Positions 8,725-36,114 of a stretch of 36,114 nt of DNA are shown here, piece by piece. Source of the DNA: Raillietiella orientalis (taxonomy: Eukaryota); assembly GCA_036172245.1 (NCBI GenBank), contig JAYWIR010000188.1, positions 1 to 36,114 on the forward strand, written 5' to 3'. Position 1 is the stretch's first letter, and every line of letters begins with the position of its first letter. The translations under genes and the position numbers were made by a program. The notes beneath the pieces are model-generated. The model ran no database searches, had not been told where the DNA came from, and saw only the letters and a program-made list of their open reading frames with translations.

Positions 8725-8810
8725 TGTACACCGCAGAGGCACCACACACAAACACTAACGAAAAGGAACGCTTCACAACAGGCGCAGAGGAGCGCGGAAA
8801 AAACACGTCC

Positions 8811-10725: not shown

Positions 10726-10732
10726 ATGAAAC

Positions 10733-10835
10733 CCTACGTGAGTACACGGCGGCACTGGAGCGCGTCGCCGTTCCTGAGGCTGTCACCCGTTGTGAAGAGC
10801 CTCCCGTCGCCGTTTTCGCCGCGCCTGAGGACTCC
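10733..10835 (+). pseudogene. Short internal ORF1 fragment (family L)
   Basis: Translates LREYTAALERVAVPEAVTRCEEPP, matching LRECSVALERVEIPE in the 8724-6925 ORF1. Confidence 0.65.
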
Positions 10836-10849
10836 GGTTTGTATTTAGG

Positions 10850-11460: not shown

Positions 11461-11469
11461 TCCGTACTG

Positions 11470-12549: not shown

Positions 12550-12647
12550 TTTAATTTTCGCCTTCATGGGAGACGGATGTGGATTCGTGTTGCTCCGTTG
12601 ATCCGCTGTTTAATTGTGCTTGTGCGTCCCACTGCCTAGTCCTGAGG

Positions 12648-13730: not shown

Positions 13731-15120
13731 GCGAGTCAGGATTTGCTCTTGCTGTAGCGCGTCCGGCTCCTGGCCGACCTCCTCCACAACCTTCACCAAG
13801 TCCTGGCTGTGCTGCAGGACCTCCGGCGTCGCCACGGTGAGTTCATTAACATTCATTTCGTCGTCTTATTCGGCGTTTTCCTTCTCTGTTGCCTTGTAAG
13901 AGGGTTCTTGTTCCTTCACGAGCAAGCTCTCCTTAACTCCTTTTGTGTGTTCAACGAAGCCGTCCGCCGAAACCGAAGCGGCCTCCTCCACCTTTCTCTG
14001 ATTCTTCGCCTGCCTTAGGCTTTGTCACCTTCGCCGAAACCTTCTCCCGCACGGGGGAGTCCATGCATCGTACGCCAGTAGGCGTACTCGGGACAACACC
14101 ACCTCGCATGCCCCGGCTCCTTACAAAAGACGCGCACCTCGGGTATGTCACAGCTGCTAACCTGGTGTCCCTGCTTGTCGCAGCGGAAGCACCGAGACCT
14201 AGGGCACGTGCTCACCCGATGACCGAAATGCTTGCACCTGGTGCCGAACTTCGTCTGCGGGCGATACTTCACCAATACTTCCTGGGAGTTCCCAGCAATA
14301 TGATTAGCCCCCGGAATCTGCACCTCCTCGAACAGCTTAATTTTGGCAACCACATCGCCTGAAAACACGTTTTGGAGAAGTTCCGGAATTCTACTTTCAA
14401 AACCTCTCCGTATTTGGCGACGAACGCCCGCACCGCCTGCCTACTGGTGGTCCCGTAGACACCACCGAGAAATATCGTAGTATACGGCATATCTCGGATG
14501 CCTCGTACTATCCTGCCTTGGATGTTTATGCCCTCCTCGATCAGGGCCTCCTTCAGTTGTTTACAATCTGTGAAGGTTGTGAACCCGCTCATGCTTGGAA
14601 TTATGGCTTGTACTGTGTCAAAGTTGACATTTGCCTGGTATAGGGCCAGGTACACTTCCCTAATGTTGTGGATTCTGATCAGTCCTGTTTTAAAGGTGAT
14701 CGGCTTGACATTCGAGCCCATCTTAATGATGGGCTCGTCAGTGTTCTCAATTTTGTCCGTCACGGGCTTGCTAAACCTCAGGGCCGGTCGGATGGTCGCC
14801 GTCCCCGCCACCACAGCCTCATAGGAAAACGCTCGCCGCCCCACGGTCGCAGCCGCACAAGATGGCATGGCGTGCGTAGCGACGGGTAGGCCTATTGGCC
14901 CGCTTGTCGCTCCGGCGACCGTTGTCGCCGGGGACGCCGCCGCCCCCGCACCACAACATTCGCCTGACGCTACCTCCAGGGCTGGGGTAGCTCCGGCCTC
15001 TCCGCCATCGCAGCGGCCTGCTGCTGCATCCTAGCGGCGGGCACTGCCATCGCCGCTGCTGGTGCTGTCGAGAGTCCTCAGCCACACTGCACAGCACTGC
15101 TTCTACCTTTAGATTACGAC
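13728..15120 (-). mobile_element. Family S element, ORF1 remnant, 3'-truncated
   Basis: IREVYLALYQANVNFDTVQAIIP, FSGDVVAKIKL and CKHFGHRVSTC/CFRCDKQGH are homologous to the ORF1 at 30111. Confidence 0.85.
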
Positions 15121-15214
15121 TTGCTCTAAGAGGGCACTCACAAAAATTAGGAAAACGCTCTTTTCGACGCTCCTGGTGTCACCCGAAAGGCGTGAAAAAG
15201 GCGAAAGAAATGCG
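15121..15214 (-). pseudogene. U5: 5'-truncated, altered U5 snRNA copy
   Basis: Minus strand reads CGCATTTCTTTCGCCTTTT...GGAGCGTCGAAAAGAGCGTTTTCCTAATTTTTGTGAGTGCCCTCTTAGAGCAA. It matches the U5 at 24835-24718 from about nt 28 onward and shares about 23 nt of 3' flank. Confidence 0.85.
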
Positions 15215-15215
15215 G

Positions 15216-18200: not shown

Positions 18201-20619
18201 CTCCGAGGATTTTCCGTTCTTAAGGAGAACCGCACCAACGGGTGATCGGACAGTGAGGTGGGCGTGTCGCGAAAATCTTCGATGCGGTTCTCGAGCTCTG
18301 TGCTGTGTAGGACGTGGTCGATCGGCTTGTGGCCAGCTGTTCGCCACAAAAGTCCGAACTCGTCTGACAACCGCCGATACGACGTCCTTTCTCTGGCGCC
18401 CCGGGTGTGGATGATCTCCATGATGTTCAGATCGCCGGGGACGATCACTTCGTCCTTGGGTGCGACCTACTGCCGGAGTGCTGCATGCAGCGCTTCCGCG
18501 CACTGATGTTTTTGCGTGTGTGTTCCGTACGCGCTTACCAAGAATATGTGAACAGTAGCGGACCACGCTAGTCGTACACCGATGATTGGTCCGGCATGGG
18601 ACAGAAGACTTCCGGGACTGTAGGGGCCAGGTCTTTGTTCACCAGCACCGCCACTCCTTCAGTGTTCCTCTGTCCTTCGCTGACGAACATTTGCATGTTA
18701 AGGCATCGTTCCATTTCCAGGCTGATCTGATGACCCAACTTGTGGGTCTCTTGCAAACACGATGTCTTCATGTGCGATCTTGCGCGCGATTCTTTTCCTT
18801 TTCCTCTGGTCGATCAGTCCATTAACGTTCCAGGAGGCGATGTTGAGCCTCCTGGCGGTGAACAGCGACGAGGCCAATGAGGGGTTCATTTCTCTTTTCT
18901 GAGCTTCTTCTGTAGGGGAGACCGTTGCAGTCTCTCCTACGAAGAAGCGGACTTCTCACTCCCGGCATCGCTCTCCGTGCCGGTGGGATCTGTCAAATCT
19001 GGTTCCTTGATTGAACGGTCGATTTTGGCGACCGCCTTGCGCGGAAGTGTCTCCTCGTCGACGTCCGCACAGTACGCCGCCTTCAGTTCGAAAAGCTTCG
19101 TCTCCAGCTTTTCGCGTTCTGACACGGTCACCATTCTGTTGATGTCCTATTGGACCTCGCAGATGCGAGCCAGGATTCGTTCCTGCTGCACCGCAGTTGA
19201 CTCATGTTGGACCTCCTTCACATACTGAACCACCTCCTCGGTTATCTGCAGAGCCTCCTGCGACACCTGGGGATGATCAGCCACCTGCATTTTTTCGCCT
19301 TTCTCTGCTTTTTCTGCCTCATCGACCTTCTGGGAGGGTTCTTGCTCCTTCACGAGCAACCTCCTCTTGCCACCCTTTCTGACCTTAACAAAGCCGTCTG
19401 CCGACGCCGGCGCGGCCTCCCTTGCCTTCTTCAGCCTCTCCACAAGTTTTGGAGGTTTCGCTACCTCCGCCAGCACCTTCTCCCGCACGGGGGAGAGTCC
19501 ACGCATCGTTCGTTAATTGGAGAACTCGGAGCAACTCCACTTGGCAGCCACTTGGCCCGGGCTCCTTGCAAAAGAAATACGCCTCGGGCATGTCGCAGTT
19601 GCGTACCCAGTGTCCCTGATTCCCACAGCGGAAGCCTCTGGATCTCGGACAGGCACTAACCCAGTGGCCAAAATTCTTGCACCCTGTGCAGAAAACTGGC
19701 TGCTCTCTATATCAGATGGAGACCTCCTGGGAGTTCCCATCAATCTAGGCGACTACTGGAATCTGCACTTCCTCTGCAAACTTTTCCTTCGCCACCACCT
19801 CTCCCGAGAAAATATTTCCGGAGAAATTCCGGAATTCCACCTCCAGAACCTCCCCGTACCTCTCCAGTAACTCCCACACTGCGTCCTTGCAGGTGGTTCC
19901 ACAAACGCCGTCAAGATACACCGTGATGTACGGCATCTCACCGATACCCCGGATCACCCTTTCTTGGAAATTCATGCCCTTTTTGATAAGGGCCTCGCGC
20001 AGTTGTTCACAATCGATAAAGATTGTGAAGCCTGACATGTTCGGTATGATGAACTGTACCGTGTCAAAGTTCACATTGGCGCGGTAAAGGGCCAGGTACA
20101 CTTCGCGGATGTTGTTCATCTTTACGAGGCCCGTCTTCAAAGTGACGGGCTTCACGTTCGGGCCAGTCTTGATAATGGACTCCTTCATGCGTTCTATTTT
20201 TCCTGTCACGGGCTTGCCAAAACTTTGGGCCGGTCGGGTCGTCGCCGTTCCCGCCGCCAACGCCGCATATAAAAACGGGGCCTTCGCCGCCGCCGTCGAA
20301 GCAGGCTGCCCCACGGTCGCAGCCACCGAGCAAGATGGCGTCGCGTCACCAGCAACGGGCAGGCCTACGGGCCTTCCTGTCGCTCCGGCGACCGCCGGTG
20401 CCGCGCCAGAACAATCTCGAAGTCCTACCTCCATGGGCTGGGGTGGCGCCACCGTCTTCTCCGCTGCCTGCTGCTTCTTCATCCTCGCGCCTGCAGACGC
20501 TACCGCTGGGGACGATCGCAAGGTTTACACCTTGGACTCCCTGGCGCTGTTGCTGCTGCTGCAGGTGGTGGGGGTCCTTGGCTGAGTACTCACTGTCACT
20601 GTCTTTGCCACTTGGGTGT
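15216..20619 (-). mobile_element. Full-length but inactivated family S Tx1-like element (ORF1 plus APE-RT-CCHC ORF2)
   Basis: ORF1 pieces span 20521-18937. ORF2 pieces carry WNVNGL, QETH, GDLN, IDHV/SDH, DMEKAFD, GVRQGDSL, YADD, KYLG and CKACGDWETRLHALTC, collinear with 31679-35206. The 3' end is AATAAA-TTACCCCACCCCTTGTGGGATTTGGG-AAAAA (15252-15216). Confidence 0.93.
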
Positions 20620-20760
20620 TGCCCTCTCGGGGCCCTCAAAAATTGCAGCGGCTGTTAGGTTAGTCACTGCCTTGGCGGGGTATTGGGTATAGTTTTCAAC
20701 TAACAATAATCGCGACTCAATTACGTTCAGCAGCGGCGAAATTGCCCGTGAGCAAGAGCC
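20620..20760 (-). ncRNA. U4: U4 spliceosomal snRNA gene or pseudogene, apparently full length
   Basis: Minus strand reads GGCTCTTGCTCACGGGCAATTTCG...GCGATTATTGTTAGTTGAAAACTATACCCAATACCCCGCC..., then Sm site AATTTTTGA and 3' hairpin GCCC-CGAGA-GGGC. The core matches the conserved U4 GCGATTATTGCTAATTGAAAACTTTTCCCAATACCCCGCC. Confidence 0.92.
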
Positions 20761-20782
20761 TCGTGATAATCATATCAAAATC

Positions 20783-23700
20783 TTTCTCAGTCCGACGTGC
20801 GGTGGGGCAATCTTATCGTTTGCAGTCAATCAAACAAACAATCGAGGAGACAGGGAAGATTGGTAAGCCTTTCGGGAATGTACTTTGGTTTGTCTCTATT
20901 CATGTCTTCACCGGGCAAAGATTCGTTTTTTGCATACTCGAGGACGAAGGATCAGGAAGCAAAGAGTAGGGAGGGCAATTGAGGGATGGGTCGTTTAGTA
21001 CACACTACTTTGTGCCTCCTGGTGTCATGTCAGGATCCCCTGTCTGTCAGCTTTCTCAATCTTTCGAAGGACGTGGCTGAAAATCCACATGCTGACACCC
21101 TAGCCCCTCGAAGCTTTGTCTTCCGGATGAGGATGTTCGAACGAAAATGCCAAAATGCTCCTTAGAGTGGATTGTAAGGGGGAGGAAACAGCCCCCTCTC
21201 CTTAGATTCCTCGGAGGGTCCCACATCGAAATGGATTTTGGAAGTTCATCGCCTGCTTCGCCACCCTCCTCCACTCTTTGGAGAGGATTCTGCAGATGTA
21301 CAGGTGGAGTGGGGCTTCTAAGATCCCTCACGCGGGACAGGCTCCACCGTTCGGGTTTTCAGTCCAATGTCGGAGCCTTGTGCCGCACAGGATCCCTCCG
21401 TGGAACACCAGGAGGCAGTCCCGAATCTCTGGAGGCAGTTCTGACCTCCAAAGGACGGTCCCTATGGCTATTGGATTTAGGACCGGTTTCCTGAACCTTT
21501 CCCACACCTTTGATATCACGTCCTCGGCATTGCTTTTCGACTTGAAGAGACATCCAGTCCTCGGGGTTCCACTCTGAGCCAATGCGAGTCCTGGTCTTGG
21601 CAGAGTCCGCGGGTCCCGTTAGTCATCCATCCTTGCGGCTGGCGCTTGTAATGCAACACTTTGCTTTCGTGGATGTTGGTGGCGAGGTGCTCTCATTCTG
21701 CGATGGTGACTGTTTTTATGCTCTAGAGCAATTTTTGTGTGGCAGAGGACACGCTGAGGAATCGTGAACGACCAACTCTTTGCCCCGAGGTTCCCTGCTT
21801 TTCTGGACGATCCCCGAATTCTTTCTTCGTGCCAGTTCTTGTTTCCTTCTCGGTGTGGGGTCTGTCAGGTACCACTGTCCTGTTGATCCGTGCAAGGGGC
21901 GCACCAGGCCCTCGGTCCCGTTGATACTCGACGCTCCTTAGGCTCGATGGGACGCATATGACCATTGGTAATAGGCGCCGACGTGCCTGATGATGTGCCG
22001 CAGGTCCCGGAGAACTGGGCAACGTGCGCCATGACTGTACCTCCTTCCTGGAGCGGTCAGCACACATACGCTTACTCTCGGCATCCGGTCACTGCTTGCC
22101 AGGTGTCGCCGGATGTAAGCCAGGTTCGGTCACCTTCTCCGGCATGCTGAGGAAGACCGTCCCGAGCGAGAACTTGGGTGTGAACACCGGTTTCATTGTC
22201 CTTCTCCCTCAGGGAGAAGTTCGCTCGCGCCTTGGTGGTCCAATGTTTGATTTCTGACTCTTTCCAGGATGCCCTTCAATTTGAGTCCTCAGAGTGCCAG
22301 TGGTCTTTTGGCGTCTCCGATGCGGACTCCCAAGTGTTTTGCCACGGCTGCTGTCCCGATTCCGTGGGATCTCAGGGGGGTGACGTTTGCTGTCCGGTTT
22401 TCATGGCCAAGGCGATTGTCCAGAAACGGCCTTCCATCCTGCTCGTCTGCCATGACACGAAGAGCAGATCGTCGGCGTAGGCCAGGTGGTTGACTCTCTC
22501 CCTTTCCGGGGCGAGTCCCTGCGGTGGACTCGCCGCCGTCGCGTAGGGCGACACCTGGTCCATGTTCAGAACGAAGAGCACGGGGCTCCAGGTTTCTCCA
22601 TGTCGGACTCCCCATTCGAACATCCGGTGATGCCAAGGCCGTTGATCCTGACGGCGAATTTTGCTTACCGCGTGAGTGGTCAAGGATTCTTATTCGGAAA
22701 ACCCGTCTTCCCGAGGATCCTGAGCAGCGTGACGTGATCCCTTCCGATTCGAAGGCCTTCGCGATGCCGATGAGGAGTGCAGCATCAGGTCGCTTCCCGG
22801 GATGCGCCTGGATCCTAGCAGGGCTTGGGCGCGCTTGACGTTCTCCCATGCGTCCTGCTTGGAACGGCGCACGTCCGCGTAGGAAAGACCACAGTCCCGA
22901 GGCACTTCTTCAGTCCGTCTGCCCGGATCTTGGCCATCCACCTCGCATCCTAGATCGACCTCCACTGGTTGGTGGACCAAAAATTGCCACCTCCACCCTT
23001 CGGGAGTTACCGCAACCACCCCCTGCTACGATGCAAGGAGGCGGGAAGTCTACCTCGATCCTCCCTCGGACCCGGATGAGCAGCTGCCGGAAGAATCGCT
23101 GGTAGGCCAGCAGGTGCCGCTGACAGTGCGTTACGGGCGCGTTGTCGGAACCTGCCGTCACGTCCCTGCAAGGCCCCGGGAACGCCGCTTTGAACTCCTC
23201 ATCGTCCGTAATTTCCGCTTCGATCTCTGAGGACTGTCGTGCGGCCAGTAGTTTCACCGCACGAAGACGCCTCGGTTCCGAATTCCCTGCCCGGAACAGC
23301 CGGGAGAGGCAGTGGCAGAAAGCGCCCACCCTCTTGTTCCGACGTTCGGCAGTCGGTGTCTCGATATTAGATGTGAAGGATGTCTGTGGATTGGTCTTGC
23401 TCCTCCCATATTTCATTTACGTCCTTCTTCCCTCTTTTGTCCGGGTATCTACTCTGGGGCTCTTCCCAATACGCGAAGTGAAAGGCGTCGCGTCGGTGGA
23501 TCCCCGGGCAGGCTTCTTCTCGAAGTGTCCTGTCGTCGAATCGCATGTTTGAGAAGAGGTGGTGGACTGCATGTTCAAGGCGATCTCAGTCGTCTACGGA
23601 GTGGATGGTGCTTCTGGCAAGGATTGTCTTCACGACGCGCTGGTATTGCGGGTAACATTCGCATCAGACTAGCATGCATATGAGTGTTGGCCTTGGCTAC

Positions 23701-24717
23701 TGGTGCTCCCTCCTGGGATTTCACCAGTGCAACTGGAACCTCAACAGGGGGTAGCCCGAGAAGTCGGGGAGACCAACTACGTCTACGGGCTCCCGGAGCC
23801 CCCTGGATGCGGTTTGCGACGGCCCGTGAGTGCGGGATGTAGTCGATGTGTGTGAAGCTCGAACCTATCCACGCGATGTCGAGTGCTTCCGCCACGTGGC
23901 AGTGAATGCTGAACGTCTAAGGCAAGCCGCCGGTTGAGGTTAATGTTGAGGTCGCCCATCTCAGCAGGATGAGACGTCCTTCGGTGCCGCCTTGCTCTTG
24001 AGAAGAGTTCCCAAGACCAGCGAGAAGGCTTCCCTCTTCTCATGAAGCCGTATACCTTCACCGCAAGGACGACTTCCAGGATGGCCACCACCTCGCGGTT
24101 GGGCTCTCCCTGGCTGACGTCGATGGTCGCTCGCAGGTGCTGCGCCCACGTGGTGTCGCTGCCTGTTCCGCCAGACAGGTGGACGGTCGTCCCCACGATC
24201 TCGGAGATGCCGTGGACTACAACCGTCTTTCGGTTGAGGAGAAGCCCATTGTCGAGATCGTCGATCACCTCCGAACTGTCCGTGTAGATGGAGAATCCCA
24301 CGACGAACGGCATGATCTCCTTGATACACTGAAAATCAATTCCTTTGCTGTCGATCCCGAGGTAGATCTCCCTCAATGCTCTGTCCGTCCGCGTCCTGTT
24401 CGTCATTACAAAGGTGACCGAGGTCACGTCCGGGCCGAAATTGCTTAGGAACCGGAACCCCTTTCGATTTGTCAGCAGACGATGCAGCCGCGTACGTGCA
24501 CCAATGCCCTCGTCGGCGAAGACGCGGATGCGGTCACGTGCGACAATGCCACGGGTGCCTTGCTGTCGTCGTCGTCGCACGCGAAACTTCCATCCGTCCG
24601 CAGGCCGCATCCGTACTCCCCACCGTCTCCACGACTACCGGTCTCCGCAGGGACACGCAACCGGAACACCATGCGTCCGCAGTTCAGACAACACAGCTTC
24701 TGCCTTTAGATTACGAC
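20783..24717 (-). mobile_element. Heavily degenerate family S element
   Basis: ORF1 remnant LREIYLGIDSKGIDFQCIKEIMPFVVGFSIYT, RT remnant NHLAYADDLLF and C-terminal AIGTVLWRSELPPEIRDCLLVFHGGIL. The 3' motif GCCCCACCGCACGTCGGACT lies at 20808-20789. Confidence 0.85.
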
Positions 24718-24835
24718 TTGCCCTAACAGGGCACTCAAAAAATTCGGAAAACGCTCTTTTCGACGCTCCCGCCCACGGATTTCTTTAGTAAAAGGCGAAA
24801 GAAATGCGCGCTTAGAGCGGGAGCCCGAGCACGTT
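24718..24835 (-). ncRNA. U5: U5 spliceosomal snRNA gene, apparently full length (about 118 nt)
   Basis: Invariant loop 1 in TTTCTTTC-GCCTTTTAC-TAAAGAAAT, stems GCTCCCGCT/GGCGGGAGC and GCTC/GAGC, Sm site AATTTTTTGAG, and 3' hairpin TGCCCT-GTT-AGGGCA. Confidence 0.95.
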
Positions 24836-26049
24836 CCGATTGCATCCGATGTTGGCCTGAAAGTACAGTTAAGGTCCCCACGTAGTGGCGTTGAAGTCAG
24901 TTTAGAGCTGATACTTTTGGAAAACAAAATCACTCATTTTCTATGTTTAGAAGGTTTCGCTTTCGAAGATAAAGAAAAGGAAGCTCAGTTTCATCTGCGA
25001 CAATTTCTGTCACGACATTGAGTGGATTCATAAGTAAATTTTCAAAAAGATCAAGTCTGCGCTGCCTGCCATCTATCTTACGATCCTTGCACCGAATTAG
25101 TGACAAGCATGACGAGAGCCTTCCAGCGCCGCGCTTTCAATATTTCCAAAGATCGTGCTTCTTCGAGGGTAAATATTTGACGATGACGTTTCCATTTGGA
25201 AAAGGCAAACCGCGATTCCTCAATGTTGCACCCATATTCGACCTTCGAGCTTTTGTTGACTGCAGTGCACCTTCGTCAAAGAGTCTGAAAGGAAAAGTCC
25301 CTAAGCAAAGCGCTCGCAAAGATGCAAAAGTTGCACCGGTGGTTACCATTTCCCTGCACTTTGAGGGGTGGCTCAACGATTCGAGGGTGACAGCGACGAG
25401 AGCATGACTGCAGTGCTGATGTACGGGCTCAACTCCCTGCGGCGAAATTTGCTGCAGACGGATTCAAGAAGCTTGTTCCGCGGTGTCAAAAGTGGGAAGT
25501 GACGGTGAGAACGGGCAAAAATGAGATGGGGATGCATGTGTGTAGAAACCACCACTAGTGCATTTTTGTTTCTCTGATTCGTTCTTCCTTTATATCCGGT
25601 TGGCCCTTACTTTGGACATGCGCCTCGTATAAACGGAACCTATAGGGAAGACGCTGCCAGCGTGGTCACGAGAGGAAACGAAAGATTCTTTTGGAAACCA
25701 CGGCTGCGCATGCGTTAGAATCTCCTAGATACCATTTGTGCGTCGATTCACCATTTAGGGGTCTGGATTGCGCTGGCTCCACGACACGCTTGCTCGATCC
25801 TGGTGCAAGTCTTTTGTCGGAAGAATGCGGAACGTGGTTCGCCCAAAATTACGGATCCACTAATCTCTCGAGCTAGACGTGCAGTGGCGTGACTTCACAC
25901 GTCCACAGCTTGCAGCAACACTTGCACATTCGTTTAAAACAGCATCTCGCACTGTTGTCCACCGTGATGGCTTCCTCTCGGTGTTCTGTCGTAACGCTGT
26001 TCTCTTGGGGATGGTGGACAGATGCTTCGGTGCTGCTTTGAGATCACCA

Positions 26050-28680
26050 GGCCATCTGCAGTTCCTGTAGGTAAGCATACGTAAGTGCTCATGCAGGCAT
26101 CCTTCGGCAGTTGAGGGTATCTTCAGCCGCTTTTACAAGGTCTTGTTCGACGGCATGTTTCTCCGCCTTCGCACCCGGATGCTGCTGATGAAGAAGGCAA
26201 AGATGGTTTCCAACATCGGGTTGTACGCCGGAACTTCCAACTCGGACATTCCCGTGGAAGATCACGCATTCAGGACGCCCTCTGGCAAAACGTTCTTCAT
26301 TCATCCACTGTCCAGTCGTTGGCCAGTGGCAGACAGATGAGGTAGCACGTGGAGTTTGGTTTCGCCACGCGCTTAGGAGCTTCATGCTGACTTCTCCTTG
26401 TGAGGTGTCGAAGCCGAGCACCGCACAAGAGATCTCCGGCGTAGGAAAGCAGGAAGCCATCTAGCGTGTTCGGTGGTGAGTCGGCTGTCCAGATCGCGGT
26501 GACCGCCGATCGCCCTGCAGATTTATCTGCGTCGTGAGGAAACGTCGGGTTCCCGCTGACAGTACGGGTCTCCCTTGCCGCGTCCGGTCTTCGCATCCTC
26601 TCTCTTCACTTGGCTCTCTGGAACACCATTCACTTCCTTTCCAAAGTTTTCCAGAGCTCCCTCGTCCCGCAGGCCACTCTGCGTCCCATTTTCGTGATCC
26701 ACTGGAAGAGCCACATCTGGTGGCGGTTTTCGCTGGTTGCGAGCGGTTCGGAATGCGCGCACGATCTTCAGATGGGGTCTCTGATGAATCACTGTTCCCT
26801 GCGGCAAATACACGAAGCGGAATATCTCCGGAGGCGATCTTTCGTCCCAGAGTCTCTTGGCTTATGGGCTCTATTTTCAGCTGGTGGATGCTGAGCAGCT
26901 GCATTTTCCGTGAATTCGAGGGGTCGACCGAATACCACTTGTCATCCTTGGTCACTGGGGCTACCATCATGCCTCCAGACTCTTACAGCACCTTGGCTCG
27001 GGCTATGCAAGCAGCGTAGGGACGCCCATCTCAAGATCTTAGCGGCTTCGATTAGTTGACGAGCGTCGGAGAGCTGGGCTTCCCACTCTGTCGGTTTCAT
27101 CCACACGCACGTACTCCGCCAAGTATCGCGGGAAGCACAGATTCTCCAGAATTCCGAGGAATACTCCCGTGGTCCACGGAGTGGAGCACCTTCACCATGT
27201 CGGTGAAGCCCAGCATGCGGTTGTCGCCGAGGTACCGACTCAAGCCGATCGTTGCCTGGGGCGCACTCGACGTTGTCAGGCATGCGCGTATCCGCGAGGC
27301 AGAATCGACGATGGAATTGCCTTTTCCATGTGGATGGCCCGGATCTTCGCCAGCCACTTGGGACGTCCGTGCTCAAGGTGGAGATTTGCCGCAACTGCGA
27401 TACTTTCGCAAGGCCCCCGTTTGTTGAGCAACAGCCTCATCATGCTTGCATGGGACGACGCTGGAGGCTACCGTCCTCTCCTGATCCCATTCGTCTGAGC
27501 TCGTGGAACGGACGGGGACAAACGTGTGGGTGCCGTCGAACGTGGCGCACGCACGCAACACCGTCACCTGCCGCCACGCCCTAGCGCAGTCCCGCCAACA
27601 AGCCCTTGATTTCCTTGACCGTTGATATCTTGCTCCGGGATATGCTGTGGTCTCGGCCAAGCCATCTCTGCGGATATCGGAGGGCGACTTGCAGCTACAT
27701 AAGGAGCAGAAAGGAAATGGAAGCGGGAGACGTCATGCTCTTGGAACGCCCCGCGGTACCTGCGGTGCCCTCCGACATGTACCAAAGCGCATTCTGGGAT
27801 TCCATGGAGAAGACGCCTGTGGAGACGTTCTTGCCCTCCATCAGGCCAGCGTCCCCATTCACGCGGTGGAAAACGTACCGTCACTCGTACTGATCCCAGT
27901 ACCGCGAGAATAAGCGGTCAAAATCGCGCGGACTCCATGCACAAACTCCTAGAAGCCGGTACAACAGCTCAGCTACAGGCGGTATCACACATGCACATCT
28001 TGCGAGGGCTCGCCGTGGGCGATGACACCTAGTATACGGGCATCAGAAAGAAGCTTGGAGCATGCTCCTGCAACTCCTGCAAAGACGTCTTCCATATGAC
28101 TGCGCAATGTAACCTGTTTGCAATCTCGTATAGGGAGAAAAACTCACACATTCTGAGGCGTTGTACAACGGCGTATCCCGGAAAAGTAGAACGCCGTAGT
28201 CGCTAGACCTCAAAGAACGCGAAATCGCTTCCCATTCAGCACCATACCACTCTCGATGAGTGTCTCTTGCAGCTCTGCGAACGAGGTATATAGCGAAAAC
28301 ACAATTGATGAAGATAGGATCGCCATTAATTTTTCAAAGTCCACATTTCGCTTGAGGAAAAAGACATACATGTCACGCAAATTGGAGGCACCTAACATCC
28401 CCATTAAAAAGGTGATATCAAAGTCAAAATTCATAAGAGATTTGTCCAACCGCTGTATTTCCAAACTTTCGGGCCTAGAAAACGCCACATTCCTAGCAAC
28501 TGGAATGGCAGCCGCCACTGCAGCATAAGATAGCGACAGCGTTGCCAGTAACGGCGTAGCTCCCACCTTGGAGGAGCGAATTTGGAAAAATAACATAAGC
28601 GTAGGGGTCGTCCTAGATCGTCCATCCACTGGTCGGTTGAAATTGACAACACTTCAGCTTCCGCAAATACAGGCGGAGTC
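26050..28680 (-). mobile_element. Very degenerate, internally deleted family S-like element
   Basis: ORF1 remnant SYAAVAA...NLRDMYVFFLKRNVDFEKLMAI (28629-28210) and RT remnant QATIGLSRYLGDNRMLGFTDMVK (27357-27097). C-terminal similarity continues to about 26090. The 3' boundary is uncertain. Confidence 0.75.
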
Positions 28681-28681
28681 C

Positions 28682-28741
28682 TTCACCCAAAAGGTGCAAA
28701 ACAAAAAATTCGCCATGGTATCGCTGCATTCAGGCAAGTAT
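28682..28741 (-). ncRNA. Candidate short U1-like Sm-site RNA, or internally deleted U1 relic
   Basis: Minus strand reads ATACTTGCCTG (U1 5' end with one mismatch), AATGCAGCGATACCATGGCG, AATTTTTTG (Sm-like), then a weak hairpin CACC-TTTTG-GGTG. It occupies the head position of a family S-like ORF1. Confidence 0.4.
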
Positions 28742-28819: not shown

Positions 28820-29000
28820 CAATGCTTCCAACCGCGATTACTTTCTTTATCACAGCAATTCTGACACGAAGGACTGATATTCACAAATCCCGAAGAACAG
28901 CACTGCAAATCGAGATTTTTAAAAAAATTCGGACAGAATAAGATAAGGGTCACGAACTGATGTAATTATGGAAGTATAGCACATTGCGAATAAGATTACG
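28820..29000 (+). pseudogene. Old ORF2 C-terminal remnant related to family S
   Basis: MLPTAITFFITAILTRRTDIHKSRR aligns by eye with MVLTTLALFITAIVIRRAKMYTQRR of the intact ORF2. Confidence 0.6.
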
Positions 29001-29809
29001 ATAGGGAAAAGGACCAATGCACCGCACACCCTGCACCCAAACCAAAAGAATGCCTCCAGCCTGTATTCAACTGCAAACAACGCAGACACGACGATTTTGG
29101 CAACCTTAACCAAGGAACGGGTAAAGGAGCTACTCCCTCACGTAAGAGGCCGCCTGCAGGGAAAATGCAGGAGGACAGGAGGCGGAAACGACGAAAGGAA
29201 AGCGCCTGCATCGAAGACGTGAACGAGATGACAGCCGGAAGCAGTGCACAATTTCCAGAACCGGTGGTTAGCGACAAACGTTGACAAGCAGCAAGCGGAA
29301 ACACGATGAGAACAGTCCATCGAACCTACGACACGCGAAAGGAAGCTGGGCAGGAAAAGTAGACAAAGAGGCAAAACCAAACGAACAAGCTCTAAGGCGC
29401 ACACACCAACGGGAAGCACGCTTTGCAAACGCGGAAAACCGCGGCGAAACAACGCTGGGATCGACTGACGTCGGAAGCACGTGCGCAGCATACGGAGCGA
29501 CCAATCGCACAGCGGCAACGCCGCACACTCGCAGCAATGGGGCAACGAATAGTGCACAGAAAGCAAAAGAGAGGGAAGCAGAGATGTCAACAAGGCAAAC
29601 ATCAATCCGACTAAACTCTCGCCAAACCAAGGCAAAACAAAAAATAATACAAAAAATGTTTAGTACAAAAAAACAAGCACAGCCACAAAAATATCACAAA
29701 CACATGCCACAAATAACACATTGAAGAAATACTGCGCAGCAAAAAACATCCAGAAACTGCGTGAAACTCAACAGTAGAAACAATGCCAAATTCTAACATA
29801 TACAAAATC

Positions 29810-29972
29810 ATACTTACCTGGCTTCGAGGCGATCTTGGTCACCATGGAGATCCCTCCAGAGTGAGGCTCGATCATTGCACTGCGATTGGGCTGACCTCTG
29901 CGATAACCCCAAACGTGGGTTACTCGGAAGCATAATTTTTAGGCTGGGAGACTGCGTTCGCGCGGACTCCTG
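29810..29972 (+). ncRNA. U1: U1 spliceosomal snRNA gene, full length (about 163 nt)
   Basis: Begins ATACTTACCTGG. Stem I is GAGG-C-GATCT/AGATCCCTC. Stem II carries the U1A loop ATTGCAC (29874-29880). Sm site AATTTTTAG, terminal stem with a TTCG loop (CTGCG-TTCG-CGCGG). Confidence 0.97.
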
Positions 29973-30110
29973 CGAATTTCTTCAAAGTAAGTGGTTTTTT
30001 TCGAGTGCTGTGTGGAAAGTGGTGCCACAGAAAGGGACCGTGGACTTTGCCCTACCACCCAGTGTGCGGAGGAGGACGTTGCCCCACGGGATCGGCCCCA
30101 GTGGGGGAAA

Positions 30111-31672
30111 ATGGAGGCGGTGGACGTCTCCACATGTGCGAGGCCGGTAGAGGCGCTGGCGGCGAGATCGGCGGAAGGGCCGAACGCAGCGTGCGCGGGA
30201 GCGGCGTCCCCTGCAACGCTCGTTGCGACGCCCGTATCGATCCGCCCTGCGTCGTACGCGGCGGCAGCAGCGGCGGCGCCACCTGGAGGTTGGAATGCGG
30301 CGGCGGTGAAATCGGTCGGTTTTCCGGGAGTGCCTCCGGCAAAACCGAGGATCCCTGTCCAACCAACAAGGTACATCCTGGACGACGAGGATGAGCCTAT
30401 ACTCGTCCTGCCGGCAGATGTCAAGCCGGTAGTTTTTAACTGCGGTCCCCTTCGTTTGGCAAACGTGAAGGACATTTACATCGCCCTTCATCAGAAAAAC
30501 GTCGATATGGACGTAGTTCAGGCCATGATTCCGTGTGGGAACGGTTTCACCATTTACACGTCGTGCGATCCCCTCATCGAGGCACTTTGCGATCACGGCT
30601 TGACCATCAGTGGGAAGCTATTCCGTGGAGTAGGAGAAACCTCCACGACGACAGTGTACCTGAAAGGGGTTGACTTTCACACCAGCAAGAAAGTCATCAA
30701 GAACTTCCTGTCGCAGTACGGGGAAGTCCACCATCTGGAGATACGGAACCAGTTTGGTGAGATCTTCTCCGGAGAAGGATTTGCCAAGATGCGCCTGTAC
30801 GAAAATGCGCAGATGCCTGGCGTGGCTTACATCGACGCGTATTCGCAATCGGTGATGTTCAAATACAGGCAACAACCTGTATTTTGCGCAGGCTGCAAGA
30901 CGTTTGGGCACCGCATCGGAGCATGCCCTAGGGCTCAATGTCACCGATGCGGCCAGCGAGGCCACTTCTTCCGGGAGTGCAACCAGCCCATAAAGTGCTA
31001 CTTCTGCGGCTTGTCTGGTCATTCGAAGAAGGAATGCAGGCGATACGCCGCATGGAGGGACGCACAGGGGCTGCCACCATTAACGGTGGAACCGCAAGTG
31101 CAAACGGAAGAGGAGAAGAAGACTCCTTCGGCCGAGGTGACTGCCAGGAAGGCGGCAGAACTCACCGAAGGGAAAAGAAGCCCGCAAAGGGGAAGAGAAA
31201 GACAGCACCACAACCTTCTGTGGAAGCGCCGGCGGAAGAGGCCGAGCCAGCCAAGGAAGCGGTGGAAATACAAGCTGCAGAGTTGGCGGAAGTTGCCAAC
31301 GTAACAGCAGAAGTGCAAGAAGTCGCGAAAATCGTGCAGGAAGCAGTAACCAGAGAAGCGAAGGCAGAAGCTCTGGAACGCATCAGCCGGGTGGAGGCCT
31401 CCATCAACGAGCGCGTTCCAGACGCGGCCAAACGCTTCCAATTGGAAGAAAGGATGCTGGAAGTGAAACAGCGCTTCGCCAGAGGGGAGCTTGAGGATCT
31501 GCAATATGCAGTCCCTCGAAGCGTCCTTAATGAAACGAGGCACTCAATCGCAGACAGCACCGACTACGTCGGGTCAGAAAGCGACGTAGGAGATCAGCGA
31601 GACGCAAAGGGGGGGACGACAACGTCTCCCAAGAAGAAGAAGAGCAAGAGGAAGAGCAGGTCCTCCAACTAG
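30111..31672 (+). CDS. ORF1 nucleic-acid-binding protein (three CCHC knuckles), with one frameshift near 31173
   Basis: Knuckles CAGCKTFGHRIGAC, CHRCGQRGHFFREC and CYFCGLSGHSKKEC. The C-terminus continues in the 30938-31672 frame, which matches the paralog piece at 19506-19147. Confidence 0.88.
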
Positions 31673-31678
31673 TCCCCT

Positions 31679-34600
31679 ATGGCCACCTTCCTGTCGACTG
31701 TCAGGAGCATCAACATCACCTCCTGGAACGTGAATGGATTGTGGAACCCGGAGAAGAGACGGATGGTCACGCGGACCATCGAGCGTGACCACATCGTGTG
31801 CCTTCAGGAAACCCACGAGCTCGAACATCAGACCATCTTGGAGCTGGAACGACGACTGGACGCCCAGCTGTTCGTGAGCCCGGGCCAGAAAAGGACCAAA
31901 GGCGTGGCGATGCTCGTGAAGAACGAGATCGCACACACCATCCTGGAAACCTTTTCACCTTGGCCCGGCCGAATCGTCGGAGTGAGGATGTCCTGGTCCG
32001 GAAACGTTCACCTGTTCCTGGTGAACGTGTACGGGCCACACCGTGGAAAACATCGCTGCGCGGAGGCCGTGCAGTCTCTGCTTCGCAGCAAAGCTTCGGC
32101 AAAGGACATCGTGATCGTCGGGGGTGACTTCAACATGCTGGACAACATAACTCAGTCCAAGGATGCACGGGGAAGAACGGCGTATCGGCGGCTGTCGGAC
32201 GAGTTCGGACTGCAATGGCTGACCGCCAGCAGCAAGCCGATCGACCACGTCCTCTTCAGCGAAGACATCGCGAATCGTGTGCAAGGCTTCCGGGAGTCTC
32301 CATCCGTACTCTCGGATCATCCCCTGCTACGATTCACGCTGAAAACAGAGAACCCCCGAAGAAAGGAAGGCGCGCGGGCTGCATTAGTATGCATGCCCGC
32401 ATGGTTCCAGACGCATCCCTGTCACCAGGAATTGATCGAGGCGATCCTGCGCAGCACCACCATTCGCAGGGTCGCCGACTGGGACAGGTTGAAGCGAACC
32501 ATCCATCTGTTCAGTAATATGCAATACGGCGACAGGAAGATGAGGACGGAAGCGTACCGCGAGCTTGAACAGCAGCAAGATCGCTCGTTCTCGAAGTACT
32601 GGCCCCAGTACGAGAGCCGGTACGTCTTCAAGACGGTCAAAGGAGAAGTTGGAGTGCTGGAAAGGAGGAACATCGCCAGCGACGTTTTCTCCATCCGGCA
32701 CGCAGATGAAGTCAGGCACACGTCCGAAGGAATCGCGGAGGCGTTCCACCATCATTACGCCTCGCACTTCCGACGAAGACTTCTGTGCCCGACAGAACAA
32801 GAGAACATTCTGCGGTACCTGCATCCGCGTGTAAGGAAAGAACACCAGGAAAAAATGGAAGCCGAGATCTCCCCAGAGGAAATCAAGATCGCTTTCGCTG
32901 GACTGCGCAAGGATGTGGCGGCAGGTCCCGATAGTGTTCCCATCTCGCACTATCAGCGGTACCTGCACGCCTACCTTCGCTTGTTCCACGAACTGACAAA
33001 CGCCATCCAGGAAGAAGGAAGACTTCCAGCATCGTTCCACGAGGGAAGGATGAAACTGCTGCCGAAGGGAGGCGACCTGATGGAAGTCACCCAATGGCGG
33101 CCGATCACCATCCTGAACACGGATGCCAAGTGGCTGGCGAAGATCTGGGCCAACCGCTTAAGAATGGCGATGCCATCCGTCGTGTCTGCTACCCAGACAT
33201 GCGCGGTGCCCGGACGAAGCATGACTGCGAACGTGAAGTGCGCCCTGGCCACGATCGGTTATTGCCGATACGTGGGCGAAGACCTGGTGCTTGGGCTCAC
33301 GGATATGGAGAAGGCGTTCGACACCGTGGACCACTCGATGTTGCTGAAGATCTTGAGGAAACTGGGCTTCCCAAGCATCTTCATGCATTACCTGGAATGG
33401 ACCCTGGCGGAGCAAATCGTGAAGATCAGGATCAACGGACTTGAGACGGCAGCAATTCGGATGGAAAGGGGTGTCCGCCAAGGTGACGCCCTGAGCCCGA
33501 TGCTGTTCGTGCTGTACATGGAGGCGGTGTCCGCGATTATAGATCGGGGCAGCCGCCTCCAAGGAATAAAAATCGACAGCCAGCAGCTGACACACCTTGC
33601 GTATGCGGACGATCTGCTGTTCTTCCTGAAGGACGAACGTGATCAGGAAGCATTCCTAGGTGTTGTCAAGCAGATGGAAAATGGACTAGGACTCAAGATC
33701 AACTGCCAGAAGAGCCACCTGCTGCCAATCGGGATCATGGACCTCTCAGTACTTCAAGAGGCCGGATTCCGAGCGGCTGACACCGTCAAGTACCTGGGTA
33801 TCCGCCTCGGCGAAGAGACTGCGTCTCGCTGCCTGTGGCAGGAGATCCTGGGTAAGGTCACCGACGAAGCCACCAAGTACACCAGAGTCGACTTCAACAT
33901 GAAGCGGAGGACTGCCTTGTGGAACGGAGTGCTCCTTCCCAAGGTTCTCTACGGAGCAGCCTTCTGCCGAATGGACAAGAAAACGAAGGAAGAACTGGAA
34001 AGGCTACAAAGAAAGATCCTCTGGCGGGAGTATAGACCCAGGGTACGGCTGAAACTTCTGTGCCGCCCACGCGAACACGGTGGGACCGGGATGAAGCTGC
34101 TGCAACACTCCGTGGAATGCATGGATGCGCGGCAGCTCCTGGATCTCACCAGAAGTTGGGAAGACTGGCCCTATGCAGCGCACCGGGCGTACTCGAAGCT
34201 GTTGAACGGCTCGAGAGGCCTGATGTCAGCGCTCATAGGTGCCACAGGACACTGGATCAACATCGACCCTACGTGGAAGCGGAAGCAGGCACTGGTGAGA
34301 ACCCAAGGGTTCAAAATCGTGCCTCGCAGCTCCGAGATATGGGACGAAGAACTGGCCATGGTGATACCTCACTTGATCCCGATGCCAAGGGAGACGGTGA
34401 ACTGGTTGAACCAAAGGCCTAGATTGAACATCCGACGGTGCGAGCAGTTCGCTACCAGTGCCAGCCGGCACCAACTGCGACTGCATCGCCTGACCACGAC
34501 CTTGAGGGGTGGTTTCAATCATCGCACCCGGGAACTTTGGAAAGAGCAGCCGCAGGAGTCGTGGCTGCTGATGACCAAAGATAACATCAGGGTGGAAACG

Positions 34601-35206
34601 GCGCGAAAACACCAAGACCTGGATGCCCTCAACGCAGCCTCGTGCCGTTACGGCCCAGCACATGCCAATGTGGTGGCCGTCGGGGCTGCACTGATGAGGA
34701 GCGACCTACCTCCGGACACTCAGGACGACCTCCTGTTGTTCTTCAACGGAGGCATTCTGAGTGGATCCAGATTGCGGCACTGGACCGGGAGACAACAAGA
34801 TGGATTCTGCTTGGCGTGTGGGGAAGAGGAAACCCAACTCCACGTACTCACCTGCCCCACGCTGCGTCCGGACTGGAAGGCGGTAAAGGCGGTGACGTGC
34901 CTGCAGAGGAAGACTGCGATGCAGATCCTGTGGGGATTGTTTCAGGGGACAGGAGTGGTTCCCCTGTACAATCCGATGGTTTTGACGACGCTGGCCCTCT
35001 TCATCACAGCCATTGTGATAAGAAGGGCCAAGATGTACACACAGCGACGACAAGTGCCGGCTTGGGACATTCTCAGCGGCCTTGTTCGGAAGGAAATCGG
35101 GATTAGGAGTTGCGGAAGAATCGCCGCCTGGACGTACCGTTACATCTTGATGAAGATGGTCGAGTACTCCCAGGCACAAAGGACGATCCCACCCTCCGCC
35201 CCTTAA
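31679..35206 (+). CDS. ORF2 polyprotein: AP-like endonuclease, reverse transcriptase and C-terminal CCHC finger (1175 aa)
   Basis: APE motifs WNVNGL, LQETH, NVYGP, GDFN, IDHV and SDH. RT motifs WRPITILNTDAK, DMEKAFD, GVRQGDALSP, YADD and KYLG. Finger CLACGEEETQLHVLTC. Confidence 0.97.
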   Translation: MATFLSTVRSINITSWNVNGLWNPEKRRMVTRTIERDHIVCLQETHELEHQTILELERRLDAQLFVSPGQKRTKGVAMLVKNEIAHTILETFSPWPGRIVGVRMSWSGNVHLFLVNVYGPHRGKHRCAEAVQSLLRSKASAKDIVIVGGDFNMLDNITQSKDARGRTAYRRLSDEFGLQWLTASSKPIDHVLFSEDIANRVQGFRESPSVLSDHPLLRFTLKTENPRRKEGARAALVCMPAWFQTHPCHQELIEAILRSTTIRRVADWDRLKRTIHLFSNMQYGDRKMRTEAYRELEQQQDRSFSKYWPQYESRYVFKTVKGEVGVLERRNIASDVFSIRHADEVRHTSEGIAEAFHHHYASHFRRRLLCPTEQENILRYLHPRVRKEHQEKMEAEISPEEIKIAFAGLRKDVAAGPDSVPISHYQRYLHAYLRLFHELTNAIQEEGRLPASFHEGRMKLLPKGGDLMEVTQWRPITILNTDAKWLAKIWANRLRMAMPSVVSATQTCAVPGRSMTANVKCALATIGYCRYVGEDLVLGLTDMEKAFDTVDHSMLLKILRKLGFPSIFMHYLEWTLAEQIVKIRINGLETAAIRMERGVRQGDALSPMLFVLYMEAVSAIIDRGSRLQGIKIDSQQLTHLAYADDLLFFLKDERDQEAFLGVVKQMENGLGLKINCQKSHLLPIGIMDLSVLQEAGFRAADTVKYLGIRLGEETASRCLWQEILGKVTDEATKYTRVDFNMKRRTALWNGVLLPKVLYGAAFCRMDKKTKEELERLQRKILWREYRPRVRLKLLCRPREHGGTGMKLLQHSVECMDARQLLDLTRSWEDWPYAAHRAYSKLLNGSRGLMSALIGATGHWINIDPTWKRKQALVRTQGFKIVPRSSEIWDEELAMVIPHLIPMPRETVNWLNQRPRLNIRRCEQFATSASRHQLRLHRLTTTLRGGFNHRTRELWKEQPQESWLLMTKDNIRVETARKHQDLDALNAASCRYGPAHANVVAVGAALMRSDLPPDTQDDLLLFFNGGILSGSRLRHWTGRQQDGFCLACGEEETQLHVLTCPTLRPDWKAVKAVTCLQRKTAMQILWGLFQGTGVVPLYNPMVLTTLALFITAIVIRRAKMYTQRRQVPAWDILSGLVRKEIGIRSCGRIAAWTYRYILMKMVEYSQAQRTIPPSAP

Positions 35207-35324
35207 CCCTAGGAACACATACAGACCAATTGTGAAAGTGAAATGTATCACGGTCATACAGACATTAAAAGTTTTAATGAATGTGAATTAGGATGATTGG
35301 AGTGAAAGGAATTTTGTTGGTTGC

Positions 35325-35360
35325 AATAAATTCACCCCACCGCTTGTCGGACTTGGGGAC
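35325..35360 (+). terminator. Element 3' end: AATAAA plus hairpin CCCCA-CCG-CTTGT-CGG-ACT-TGGGG
   Basis: A related motif ends the family S copies at 15252-15216 and about 20816-20785. Confidence 0.7.
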
Positions 35361-35361
35361 A

Positions 35362-35502
35362 ATCTTGGTCACCATGGAGATCCCTCCAGAGTGAGGCTCG
35401 ATCATTGCACTGCGATTGGGCTGACCTCTGCGATAACCCCAAACGTGGGTTACTCGGAAGCATAATTTTTAGGCTGGGAGACTGCGTTCGCGCGGACTCC
35501 TG
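35362..35502 (+). pseudogene. U1: 5'-truncated U1 snRNA copy (nt 23 to end)
   Basis: Reads identical to 29832-29972 (offset 5530) and lacks the ATACTTACCTGG splice-site pairing end. Confidence 0.95.
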
Positions 35503-36114
35503 CGAATTTCTTCAAAGTAAGTGGTTTTTTTCGAGTGCTGTGTGGAAAGTGGTGCCACAGACCGTGGACTTTGCCCCACTACCCAGTGTGTGATGGAGGA
35601 CGTTGCCCACGGGATCGGCCCCAGTTGGAGTGGAAGCAGGAGGGCAGGGGGGACTGTCCTTCAGGCGGCGGTGGAGGCCGGTAGAGGCGCTGGCGGTGAC
35701 ATCGGCGAAGGGCTGAACGCAGCGTGCGCGGGAGCGGCGTCCCCTGCAACGCCTGCTGCCCGTATCGATCCGCCCCGCGTCGTACGCGGCGGCAGCAGCG
35801 GCGGCGCCACCCGCCGGGAATGCGGCGGCGGTGGAAATCGGTCGGCTCTTCGGGAGGCCTCCGGAGAAACTGAGATCCCTGTCCAACCAACAAGGTACAT
35901 CCTGGACGACGAGGATGAGCCTATACTCGTCCTGCCGGCAGATGTCAAGCCGGTAGTTTTTAACGGCGGTCCCCTTCGTTTGGCAAACGTGAAGGACATT
36001 TACATCGCCCTTCATCAGAAAAACGTCGATATGGACGTAGTTCAGGCCGTGATTCCGTGTGGGAACGGTTTCACCATTTACACGTCGTGCGATCCCCTCA
36101 TCGAGGCACTTTGC
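35503..36114 (+). mobile_element. 5' part of the next tandem family S copy (ORF1 with indels); runs off the window edge
   Basis: Identical to 29973-30031, indel-rich over about 35560-35880, then nearly identical to about 30350-30590. Confidence 0.93.

Follow-up and report, generated by a model that had tools for sequence, protein, structure and literature searches.

L1-like retrotransposons joined to U1 and other spliceosomal RNA genes in Raillietiella orientalis: small nuclear RNA heads and a possible target-restoring mode of insertion

Results

Two retrotransposon arrays around small nuclear RNA genes

The 36,114-nucleotide (nt) stretch of the Raillietiella orientalis genome analysed here (assembly GCA_036172245.1, contig JAYWIR010000188.1; called the window below, and the scope of all counts in this study) is, taken as a whole, a nest of retrotransposons around small nuclear RNA (snRNA) sequences. 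Rfam finds four snRNA matches in it, two to U1 on the plus strand and one each to U5 and U4 on the minus strand, and no match to U2. The plus strand carries, in this order, a full U1 gene, a 59-nt flank, a 5.3-kb element with an apurinic/apyrimidinic-type endonuclease (APE) and a reverse transcriptase (RT), which we call A1, then U1 nt 23-163 with an identical flank, and a second element, A2. An array of the elements X, Y and Z with U5 and U4 sequences lies on the minus strand, and the layouts on the two strands together form a wider, regular architecture in this window.

A complete U1 gene and an exact 200-bp duplication at the borders of A1

The complete U1 snRNA gene that forms the head of A1 lies at 29810-29972 (+; Rfam RF00003, 132.9 bits, model positions 1-166), and its 59-nt 3' flank (29973-30031, +), which contains AAAG..AG and GCTGTGTGG motifs as do the other snRNA flanks here, ends at the element border. 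Behind A1 we found a decapitated U1 consisting of nt 23-163 (35362-35502, +), identical to 29832-29972, and a second copy of the flank (35503-35561, +), identical to 29973-30031. In a script comparison, 29832-30031 and 35362-35561 agree at 200 of 200 positions, with 0 extra identical bases on either side; the repeat is made up of U1 nt 23-163 (141 nt) and 59 nt of 3' flank, and self-comparison gives a start-to-start spacing of 5530 bp. The preliminary description of this DNA had reported the full U1 upstream of the element, a duplication of about 200 bp at exactly this spacing and a junction of the element's 3' end with U1 at about nt 23, all of which our analysis bears out. It had also taken the end of the repeat for the start of the element's 5' untranslated region (UTR), and here we differ, as the last 59 nt are better read as U1 gene flank.

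The second Rfam match to U1 (35340-35502, +; 105.2 bits) contains true U1 sequence for nt 23-163 only, its first 22 nt being the 3' tail of A1, which agrees with U1 nt 1-22 at 11 of 22 positions. Element and U1 meet between nt 22 and 23 of the U1 sequence, and the 200-nt duplication has its left edge at the conserved 3' tail of A1. A fragment U1(1-22) directly before the element is found ahead of neither A1 nor A2.

A sequencing run (X1; DNA, type uncertain) contains 0.30 of the sampled window words and covers the region as contigs at a depth of about 2-4, with 0 contigs bridging the whole repeat unit; it was used solely for a variant U1-flank contig and for an alternative U4 flank. The variant contig, with four differences, appears to span the border between U1 flank and element (~29884-30069, extent inferred) and would then be an allele or one more copy (at least the third) that has this border. 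Other contigs of this run match several parts of A1 without differences, and one of them ends at the junction base 35362. No RNA run containing window words came up in the sequencing-run search.

The 900 bp immediately before the full U1 (28900-29809, +) are markedly T-poor (A 40%, T 13%; AT skew 0.4-0.7), and this skew stops at U1 nt 1. Pfam searches of the open reading frames (ORFs) between U1 and the head of the next element to the left (W, see below), including the T-poor stretch, gave 0 matches.

A1 is an L1/Tx1-type element with a second, diverged copy

A1 (30032-35361, +; 5330 nt) comprises ORF1, ORF2 and a 3' UTR with AATAAA and a tail motif at 35335-35350, and ends in ...GGGGACA. ORF1 runs from stop to stop at 29991-31304 with its first ATG at 30111, and ORF2 (31673-35206) is open over 1177 codons, with APE and RT domains and a putative C-terminal CCHC region. 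Pfam recognizes the APE domain of ORF2 as Exo_endo_phos (E 8.9e-19), where L1 endonuclease structures matched as well, and the RT domain as RVT_1 (E 2.2e-30), with YADD at residue 644. The catalytic motifs WNVNG, LQETH, GDFN, SDH and YADD are all present, and the best solved relative is human L1 ORF2p (E 8e-57, versus 6e-24 for R2). Matches to zf-CCHC families stay below the Pfam cut-offs (E 7e-4 to 2.5e-3); the translation shows three C-x2-C-x4-H-x4-C motifs, a pattern match places CLACGEEETQLHVLTC at ORF2 residue 1046, and Pfam gives no zf-RVT match for A1. A protein search returned 36 matches, the best about 29% identical and unnamed, and no close relatives among them. By its predicted APE and RT domains, A1 is an L1/Tx1-type (APE) retrotransposon without long terminal repeats (non-LTR), its place in the Tx1 clade itself having to be read against nearest database proteins of ~29% identity.

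Between the two ORFs, a 246-codon open frame (30932-31672, +) overlaps the end of ORF1, continues in the frame of ORF2 and reaches a single stop directly before it; the encoded sequence resembles a coiled-coil or charged protein region. ORF1 of A1 may contain a frameshift, mutational or programmed.

A2 is represented by its 5' part, 553 nt at 35562-36114 (+), where the window edge ends it, and has neither the 6 border nt of A1 nor A1's ATG. The 6-nt indel between the two copies lies exactly at the border of flank and element; beyond it, identity is about 84% over ~320 nt with 8 further indels, and the next ~240 nt are 99% identical. This non-uniform identity argues against an assembler duplication or a recent tandem duplication, either of which would give uniform identity. 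A plain segmental duplication with a breakpoint unrelated to the element, which the preliminary description had held up against its own account, does not fit a duplication edge that falls on the element's 3' end, nor the differences between the two copies. The greater intactness claimed for the upstream copy was judged against just the 553 nt of A2.

A minus-strand array with U5 and U4

Between 13726 and 24832, the order on the minus strand is U5(full), X, U4(full from nt 1), Y, U5(nt 25-end) and Z, as determined by tblastn with the A1 proteins, self-comparison and junction reading. The complete U5 snRNA gene with its flank (24718-24832, -; Rfam RF00020, 81 bits) is the head of X, a degraded element of approximate extent (20760-24680, -) with ORF1- and ORF2-like pieces at 24376-21262 and a tail motif at 20807-20792. 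The U4 snRNA (20621-20759, -; Rfam RF00015, 63.1 bits, model positions 1-138) is complete from nt 1 and heads Y, which together with ~53 nt of U4 flank (20568-20620) occupies 15215-20620 (-). The ORF1 of Y has its ATG at 20482, while 6 stop codons as well as frameshifts interrupt its ORF2 (18877-15388, -). The element ends in ...GGGAAAAAC, its tail motif (15243-15228) being followed by AAAAAC and then by U5 nt 25, which places the junction between U5 nt 24 and 25. This decapitated U5 (nt 25-end; 15121-15214, -), whose loop I region contains a block of mutations, is in turn the head of Z, of which ~56 nt of U5 flank (15065-15120) and the 5' part, with an ORF1 related to that of Y (68% nt identity), are seen at 13726-15120 (-).

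Head and target do not always correspond in this array: Y has a U4 head while its 3' end is joined to U5, and X has U5 on its left and U4 on its right. The U4 head of Y starts exactly at nt 1 with the tail of X 22 nt upstream, which leaves no room for a promoter. As with A1 and A2, no classical 5' snRNA fragment precedes Y or Z.

In two contigs of run X1 that overlap 20619-20660, U4 is followed by another 3' flank (loose end at 20619) and has two base differences, at the higher depth of 11.8. Apparently, Y has a U4 head that differs from this organism's main U4 genes.

Heads and flanks derived from snRNA genes precede ORF1 in the elements examined

A further degraded element, W (25827-28741, -), has a U1-like head, a degenerate tail motif and an Sm-site remnant. 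Its head of ~72 nt (28670-28741) starts with ATACTTGCCTG at 28741, is internally deleted, and includes an Sm-site-like run and a terminal stem; at its 3' end, the degenerate tail motif (25889-25865) is followed by a remnant of ~38 nt with Sm site and stem-loop (25864-25827). Neither the head nor the 3' remnant has an Rfam match, and their identities come from reading the sequence. A single family comprising X and W was considered and dropped, as the two have no nucleotide similarity.

Farther to the left, ORF1-bearing units at 6900-6990 and 8730-8850 (-) follow a stem-loop similar to the 3' end of U1 (GCGCGGAC...CTCC..TGCG), and a flank resembling the U1 flank (TTTTCG..GTGTGTGGTGCC) lies directly before the ORF1 start. 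One of these units is preceded by a tail-like ...AACTTGG. The left-hand units may constitute a separate family whose junction lies close to the U1 3' stem-loop.

An snRNA-derived head with flank thus stands directly before ORF1 in 7/7 elements or units examined, the head being U1 in A1 and A2, U5 in X and Z, U4 in Y, U1-like in W and similar to the U1 3' stem-loop in the left-hand units. The flanks measure 59 nt for U1, ~53 nt for U4 and ~56 nt for U5, and ORF1 starts only ~70-140 nt past the snRNA end in all cases. X and Z have about 34 of 36 flank bases in common, though blastn detects no similarity of their bodies beyond U5 and its flank, while Y and Z, with their related ORF1s, have different flanks. 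Judged by these comparisons, the flank goes with the type of snRNA and not with the element family, which places the origin of the heads in gene copies or read-through transcripts rather than in mature snRNA.

The U1, U4 and U5 flanks share AAAG..AG and GCTGTGTGG-like motifs. Consensus 5' splice-site hexamers occur in the U1 flank (GTAAGT) and the U4 flank (GTGAGT), and CAG stands at the end of two flanks out of three. Flanks acting as mini-introns (GTAAGT...CAG in that of U1, GTGAGT in that of U4) were considered; the pattern holds for 2/3 flank types only.

A common tail motif at three element ends

The tail motif CCCCACCSCNNGTSGG has three matches in the window, all with 0 mismatches (<=2 allowed), at 35335-35350 (+), 20807-20792 (-) and 15243-15228 (-). 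Each lies at the 3' end of an RT-bearing element, with an AATAAA-like sequence before it. The bare count is not above chance (at least three matches in 17 of 100 shuffles); the weight of the motif lies in its placement at three element ends. From the tail motif to the snRNA there are 11-13 nt in A1 and Y and 32 nt in X.

The preliminary description spoke of a 3' hairpin. A conserved sequence motif with a plausible interrupted stem is indeed present, and its inner stem covaries between A1 and Y (CCG/CGG versus CCC/GGG), but the tails fold no more stably than shuffled sequence (z -0.02, -0.76 and +0.53). We also considered the A1 tail as a mimic of U1 nt 1-22, since 11/22 positions match (p about 0.014) and Rfam aligns it as U1. 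As the Y tail matches U5 nt 1-24 at only 6/24 positions, the resemblance is treated as chance.

A metagenome scan for AATAAA plus the tail motif gave 0 matches, and a scan with an RT alignment of A1 and Y gave a single locus of 1648 nt at 30% identity and no usable relative.

The left part of the window

Positions 1-13700 hold further degraded L1-like fragments on both strands, with repeat spacings of ~6.4-6.85 kb and ~1.7-1.85 kb (for example 2216-3664 versus 9062-10517, 84% identity). Pfam searches of the ORFs in this part gave just traces of RT, zf-RVT and zf-CCHC. An exact 276-bp tandem duplication (100% identity) lies within an RT-like fragment at 1922-2473 (+).

Discussion

An RNA-borne head may restore the target gene

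We propose, with a probability of roughly 40%, that the snRNA head is carried in the RNA of the element and rejoined to the nicked target by homology, which we regard as the best single explanation of these arrays. In its full form, a target-restoring retrotransposition in which a read-through RNA with a whole snRNA gene copy would rebuild a promoter-linked gene upstream of every insertion, the proposal is a tentative one. The APE would nick Sm-class snRNA genes near their 5' ends, in U1 between nt 22 and 23 and in U5 between nt 24 and 25. The element, which has almost no 5' UTR of its own, would probably be transcribed from the snRNA promoter by read-through past the 3' processing signal, and the resulting RNA would begin with a whole snRNA and ~55 nt of gene flank. 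The nick would then prime reverse transcription, the complementary DNA (cDNA) would end in a copy of the snRNA head, and this head could pair with the target gene, guiding 5' joining and second-strand priming. The product would be, in order, promoter, complete snRNA, flank, element, decapitated snRNA and flank, with a presumably functional U1 upstream. The next insertion would enter the rebuilt gene and shift older copies downstream, which could build up an array.

An RNA-borne head accounts for the presence of heads on all elements, for the border common to A1, A2 and the X1 contig, and for the near-absence of a 5' UTR. The short distance of ~70-140 nt between the snRNA and the ORF1 ATG leaves little room for a promoter of the element's own. 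A U4 head that starts at nt 1 without room for a promoter is what a retro-copied RNA 5' end would be expected to look like. The model also covers Y with its U4 head in a U5 target, a combination that duplicating the target could not yield.

Several observations weigh against this proposal. Heads that are identical at 200/200 positions, followed by an abrupt fall to ~84%, fit a target-derived duplication equally well, and a purely RNA-inherited head should diverge together with its element. The heads of X and Z are ~94% alike in the flank, while their bodies are without blastn similarity. The similar flank lengths in three head types call for a systematic acquisition of heads, which the model does not supply, and the 22 nt between the X tail region and U4 nt 1 are not accounted for. 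A promoter motif common to the regions upstream of U1, U5 and the W head was not found among 9-mers with <=1 mismatch and offsets within 12. Finally, the window shows one U1 junction and one U5 junction, no more.

The first of these difficulties means that either gene conversion or a modified form of the model is needed. Pairing can make use of the target's own strand, so the rebuilt head may be copied from the target and not from the RNA: the top strand of the target would pair with the cDNA head and prime the second strand, and the head would be target-templated and refreshed at each insertion. This refinement would remove the problem of the 200/200 identity with its abrupt drop, and likewise that of the similar X and Z heads. 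The claim of the preliminary description that the snRNA head belongs to the transposed unit is borne out in part. The heads on seven elements or units, the U4 head from nt 1 and the difference between the head of Y and its target speak for it, while the 200/200 identity and the subsequent drop to ~84% fit a target-derived head as well.

Other routes to the same arrangement

A very long target-site duplication, which we consider unlikely as an account of the whole, would do without any RNA-borne head. The bottom strand would be nicked between U1 nt 22 and 23 and the top strand broken ~200 bp downstream, 59 nt past the U1 end; a headless element would insert, the intact gene would stay upstream, and the second element would be an earlier insertion of like kind. 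Identical direct repeats (200/200) do flank A1, the match stops precisely at the 5' border of the element, and the 6 extra nt at the A1 5' junction give the classic picture of a duplication with filler. Heads that stay close while element bodies diverge also agree with this scheme, and long target duplications are reported for R8, R9, CRE and R4 elements in the relevant part of an earlier study (PMC3636483). For the U1 pair itself, a target-derived head is a serious rival. On the minus strand, Y (U4 head, U5 target) and X (U5 head, U4 end), two of the three elements with both ends informative, misfit without extra rearrangements, and the U4 head runs from nt 1 with an element tail 22 nt upstream. 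As the A2 5' end lies at exactly the flank position of A1, a second-strand break 150-200 bp away would moreover need site specificity in each of three different flanks. The X1 variant contig, for which no 6-nt gap is listed, seems to have the 6 filler nt too, and they are therefore probably inherited.

Alternatively, the elements could have entered a pre-existing cluster of snRNA genes in the same orientation, with one hit per gene that removed the spacer, the promoter and the initial 22-24 nt, so that every head would be the neighbouring gene. Kojima & Jurka offered a deletion of this kind for the Utopia arrays in U2 genes of Phytophthora, with recombination or conversion as an alternative, where their paper treats these arrays (PMC4640811). 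The mismatched heads and targets (U5-X-U4-Y-U5) are explained in this way at no extra cost, the heads resemble host genes more than the element bodies resemble each other, and the 5' and 3' flanks of X sum to a spacer of ~58-62 nt, like the other flanks, which fits a regular array. We nevertheless judge this course of events improbable. Independent deletions would have to share a flank endpoint, given that A1, A2 and probably the X1 contig all stop after ...GCCACAGA. What lies upstream of the full U1 does not resemble the 59-nt spacer, with no promoter-like motif in common, so that the internal genes of such a dense array would be promoterless. An element tail lies 22 nt ahead of nt 1 in the U4 copy, and run X1 has other U4 copies whose 3' flank is different (loose end 20619, two contigs).

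Still less probable is a classical insertion with later gene conversion, unequal crossing-over or ectopic recombination among the elements. Tandem elements with kilobases of homology would be good substrates, the mosaic identity of A1 and A2 (100%, about 84%, 99%) suggests exchange or conversion tracts, and Kojima & Jurka left this possibility for Utopia in the same part of their paper (PMC4640811). Against it stands the absence of a classical U1(1-22)-element junction, or its equivalent, before A1, A2, Y and Z, and unequal exchange cannot make a full U1 with flank from U1(1-22)-element-U1(23-163). Recombination would also have to contend with a layout of head, flank and ORF1 that is seen again and again, in no fewer than four element families whose heads derive from U1, U4 and U5.

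An assembly artefact, in which a single U1-associated element was duplicated or mis-joined and which the preliminary description had named as a possible refutation, is very improbable: tandem 5.5-kb repeats are error-prone and run X1 is thin (depth ~2-4, no contig across the unit), but between A1 and A2 there are 9 indels and numerous substitutions within the first 320 nt, U5 and U4 show this layout independently on the opposite strand, and contigs of run X1 match A1 parts exactly, one ending at 35362.

What a target-sparing insertion would mean

If the proposed RNA-borne head and its rejoining to the target are right, the parasite would never exhaust its low-copy target and would always land behind a strong promoter. 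An insertion mode that spares the target would explain arrays of elements each followed by a decapitated snRNA, and it would be a new way for a promoterless long interspersed nuclear element (LINE) to secure its transcription. The window offers a concrete, testable system for such questions: its ORF2 is apparently intact, the nick site is defined and the head measures 200 bp. Target-sparing, site-specific elements are furthermore of interest as models for safe gene insertion.

Comparison with known systems

Long duplications of target sequence have been linked to site-specific non-LTR elements before. The title of a 2009 paper by Gladyshev & Arkhipova reportedly calls the target-site duplication of R9 from bdelloid rotifers 'exceptionally long'; this duplication is said to measure about 126 bp, and that of CRE/SLACS-type elements about 49 bp. 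The R9 and CRE/SLACS elements encode restriction-like endonucleases, their duplications reportedly stay below 200 bp, and a whole gene is not regenerated. They resemble the elements described here in being site-specific for multicopy RNA genes and in duplicating a stretch of the target, according to the passages of PMC3636483 that concern them.

R1 and R2 resemble our elements in their dependence on the target promoter and in the target sequence at the RNA ends that makes junctions precise, as discussed in section 18 of Kojima 2015 (PMC4494074). The same section cites the co-transcription of R2 with its target and the role of this in integration, and it discusses transcription from flanking sequence for Tx1-type elements. 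R2 relies on short upstream target sequence or on ribozyme trimming, and the 28S gene is disrupted, whereas a complete gene copy precedes the element here.

Heads derived from snRNA are known from the crocodilian Tx1-Mar families and SINEU, whose U1- or U2-derived 5' heads are ascribed to template switching (Kojima 2015, PMC4494074, section 16). Those elements insert into a Mariner transposon, and that section does not describe their heads as having gene flank. In the elements studied here, in contrast, the heads include 53-59 nt of gene flank that is absent from mature snRNA, and the 3' ends lie inside snRNA genes. We considered template switching of this type for our heads; the 53-59 nt flank is present and follows the type of snRNA, which does not agree with it.

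Closer in enzymology are Keno and other target-specific Tx1 elements. Passages of PMC4494074 and the legend to its Fig. 3 give U2 as the target of Keno and U5 and 5S as those of others, microsatellites being targets as well. As far as that source describes them they share with our elements the APE type, two ORFs and, judging by the one U1 and one U5 junction seen here, precise 3' junctions inside small RNA genes. The target differs, as A1 is joined to U1, and our literature search found no non-LTR element in print that targets U1. A 2015 list of transposons targeting snRNA genes, as given in PMC4640811, contains Keno, Utopia, Dada-U1 and Dada-U6 only.

The closest parallel in architecture is Utopia, which forms arrays in the U2 genes of Phytophthora. 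In the account of these arrays in PMC4640811, every element is followed by a U2 that begins at nt 39, intact snRNA genes and not the expected 5' fragment lie upstream, and several families occur per array; its authors proposed a deletion at integration, kept recombination or conversion as alternatives and left the mechanism open. Our arrays share with these, as there described, the sequence of elements each followed by a 5'-truncated snRNA gene, with intact snRNA genes upstream. Utopia differs in having a restriction-like endonuclease, a single ORF and a U2 target, whereas we found APE, two ORFs and junctions with U1 (nt 23) and U5 (nt 25), together with U4 and U1-like heads. With an APE domain, two ORFs and no U2 in the window, the present elements do not belong to Utopia. 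New here is an array of APE-type elements joined to U1; arrays of non-LTR elements that target snRNA genes are, as such, already known.

Section 11 of PMC4640811 calls it puzzling that five Utopia families survive on ~10 intact U2 genes. As snRNA genes are few, an insertion that leaves or rebuilds an intact gene would remove the paradox of persistence raised there. If our proposal is true, the same logic would explain the Utopia/U2 arrays of oomycetes, and target-sparing insertion into snRNA genes would be a general strategy across both endonuclease types.

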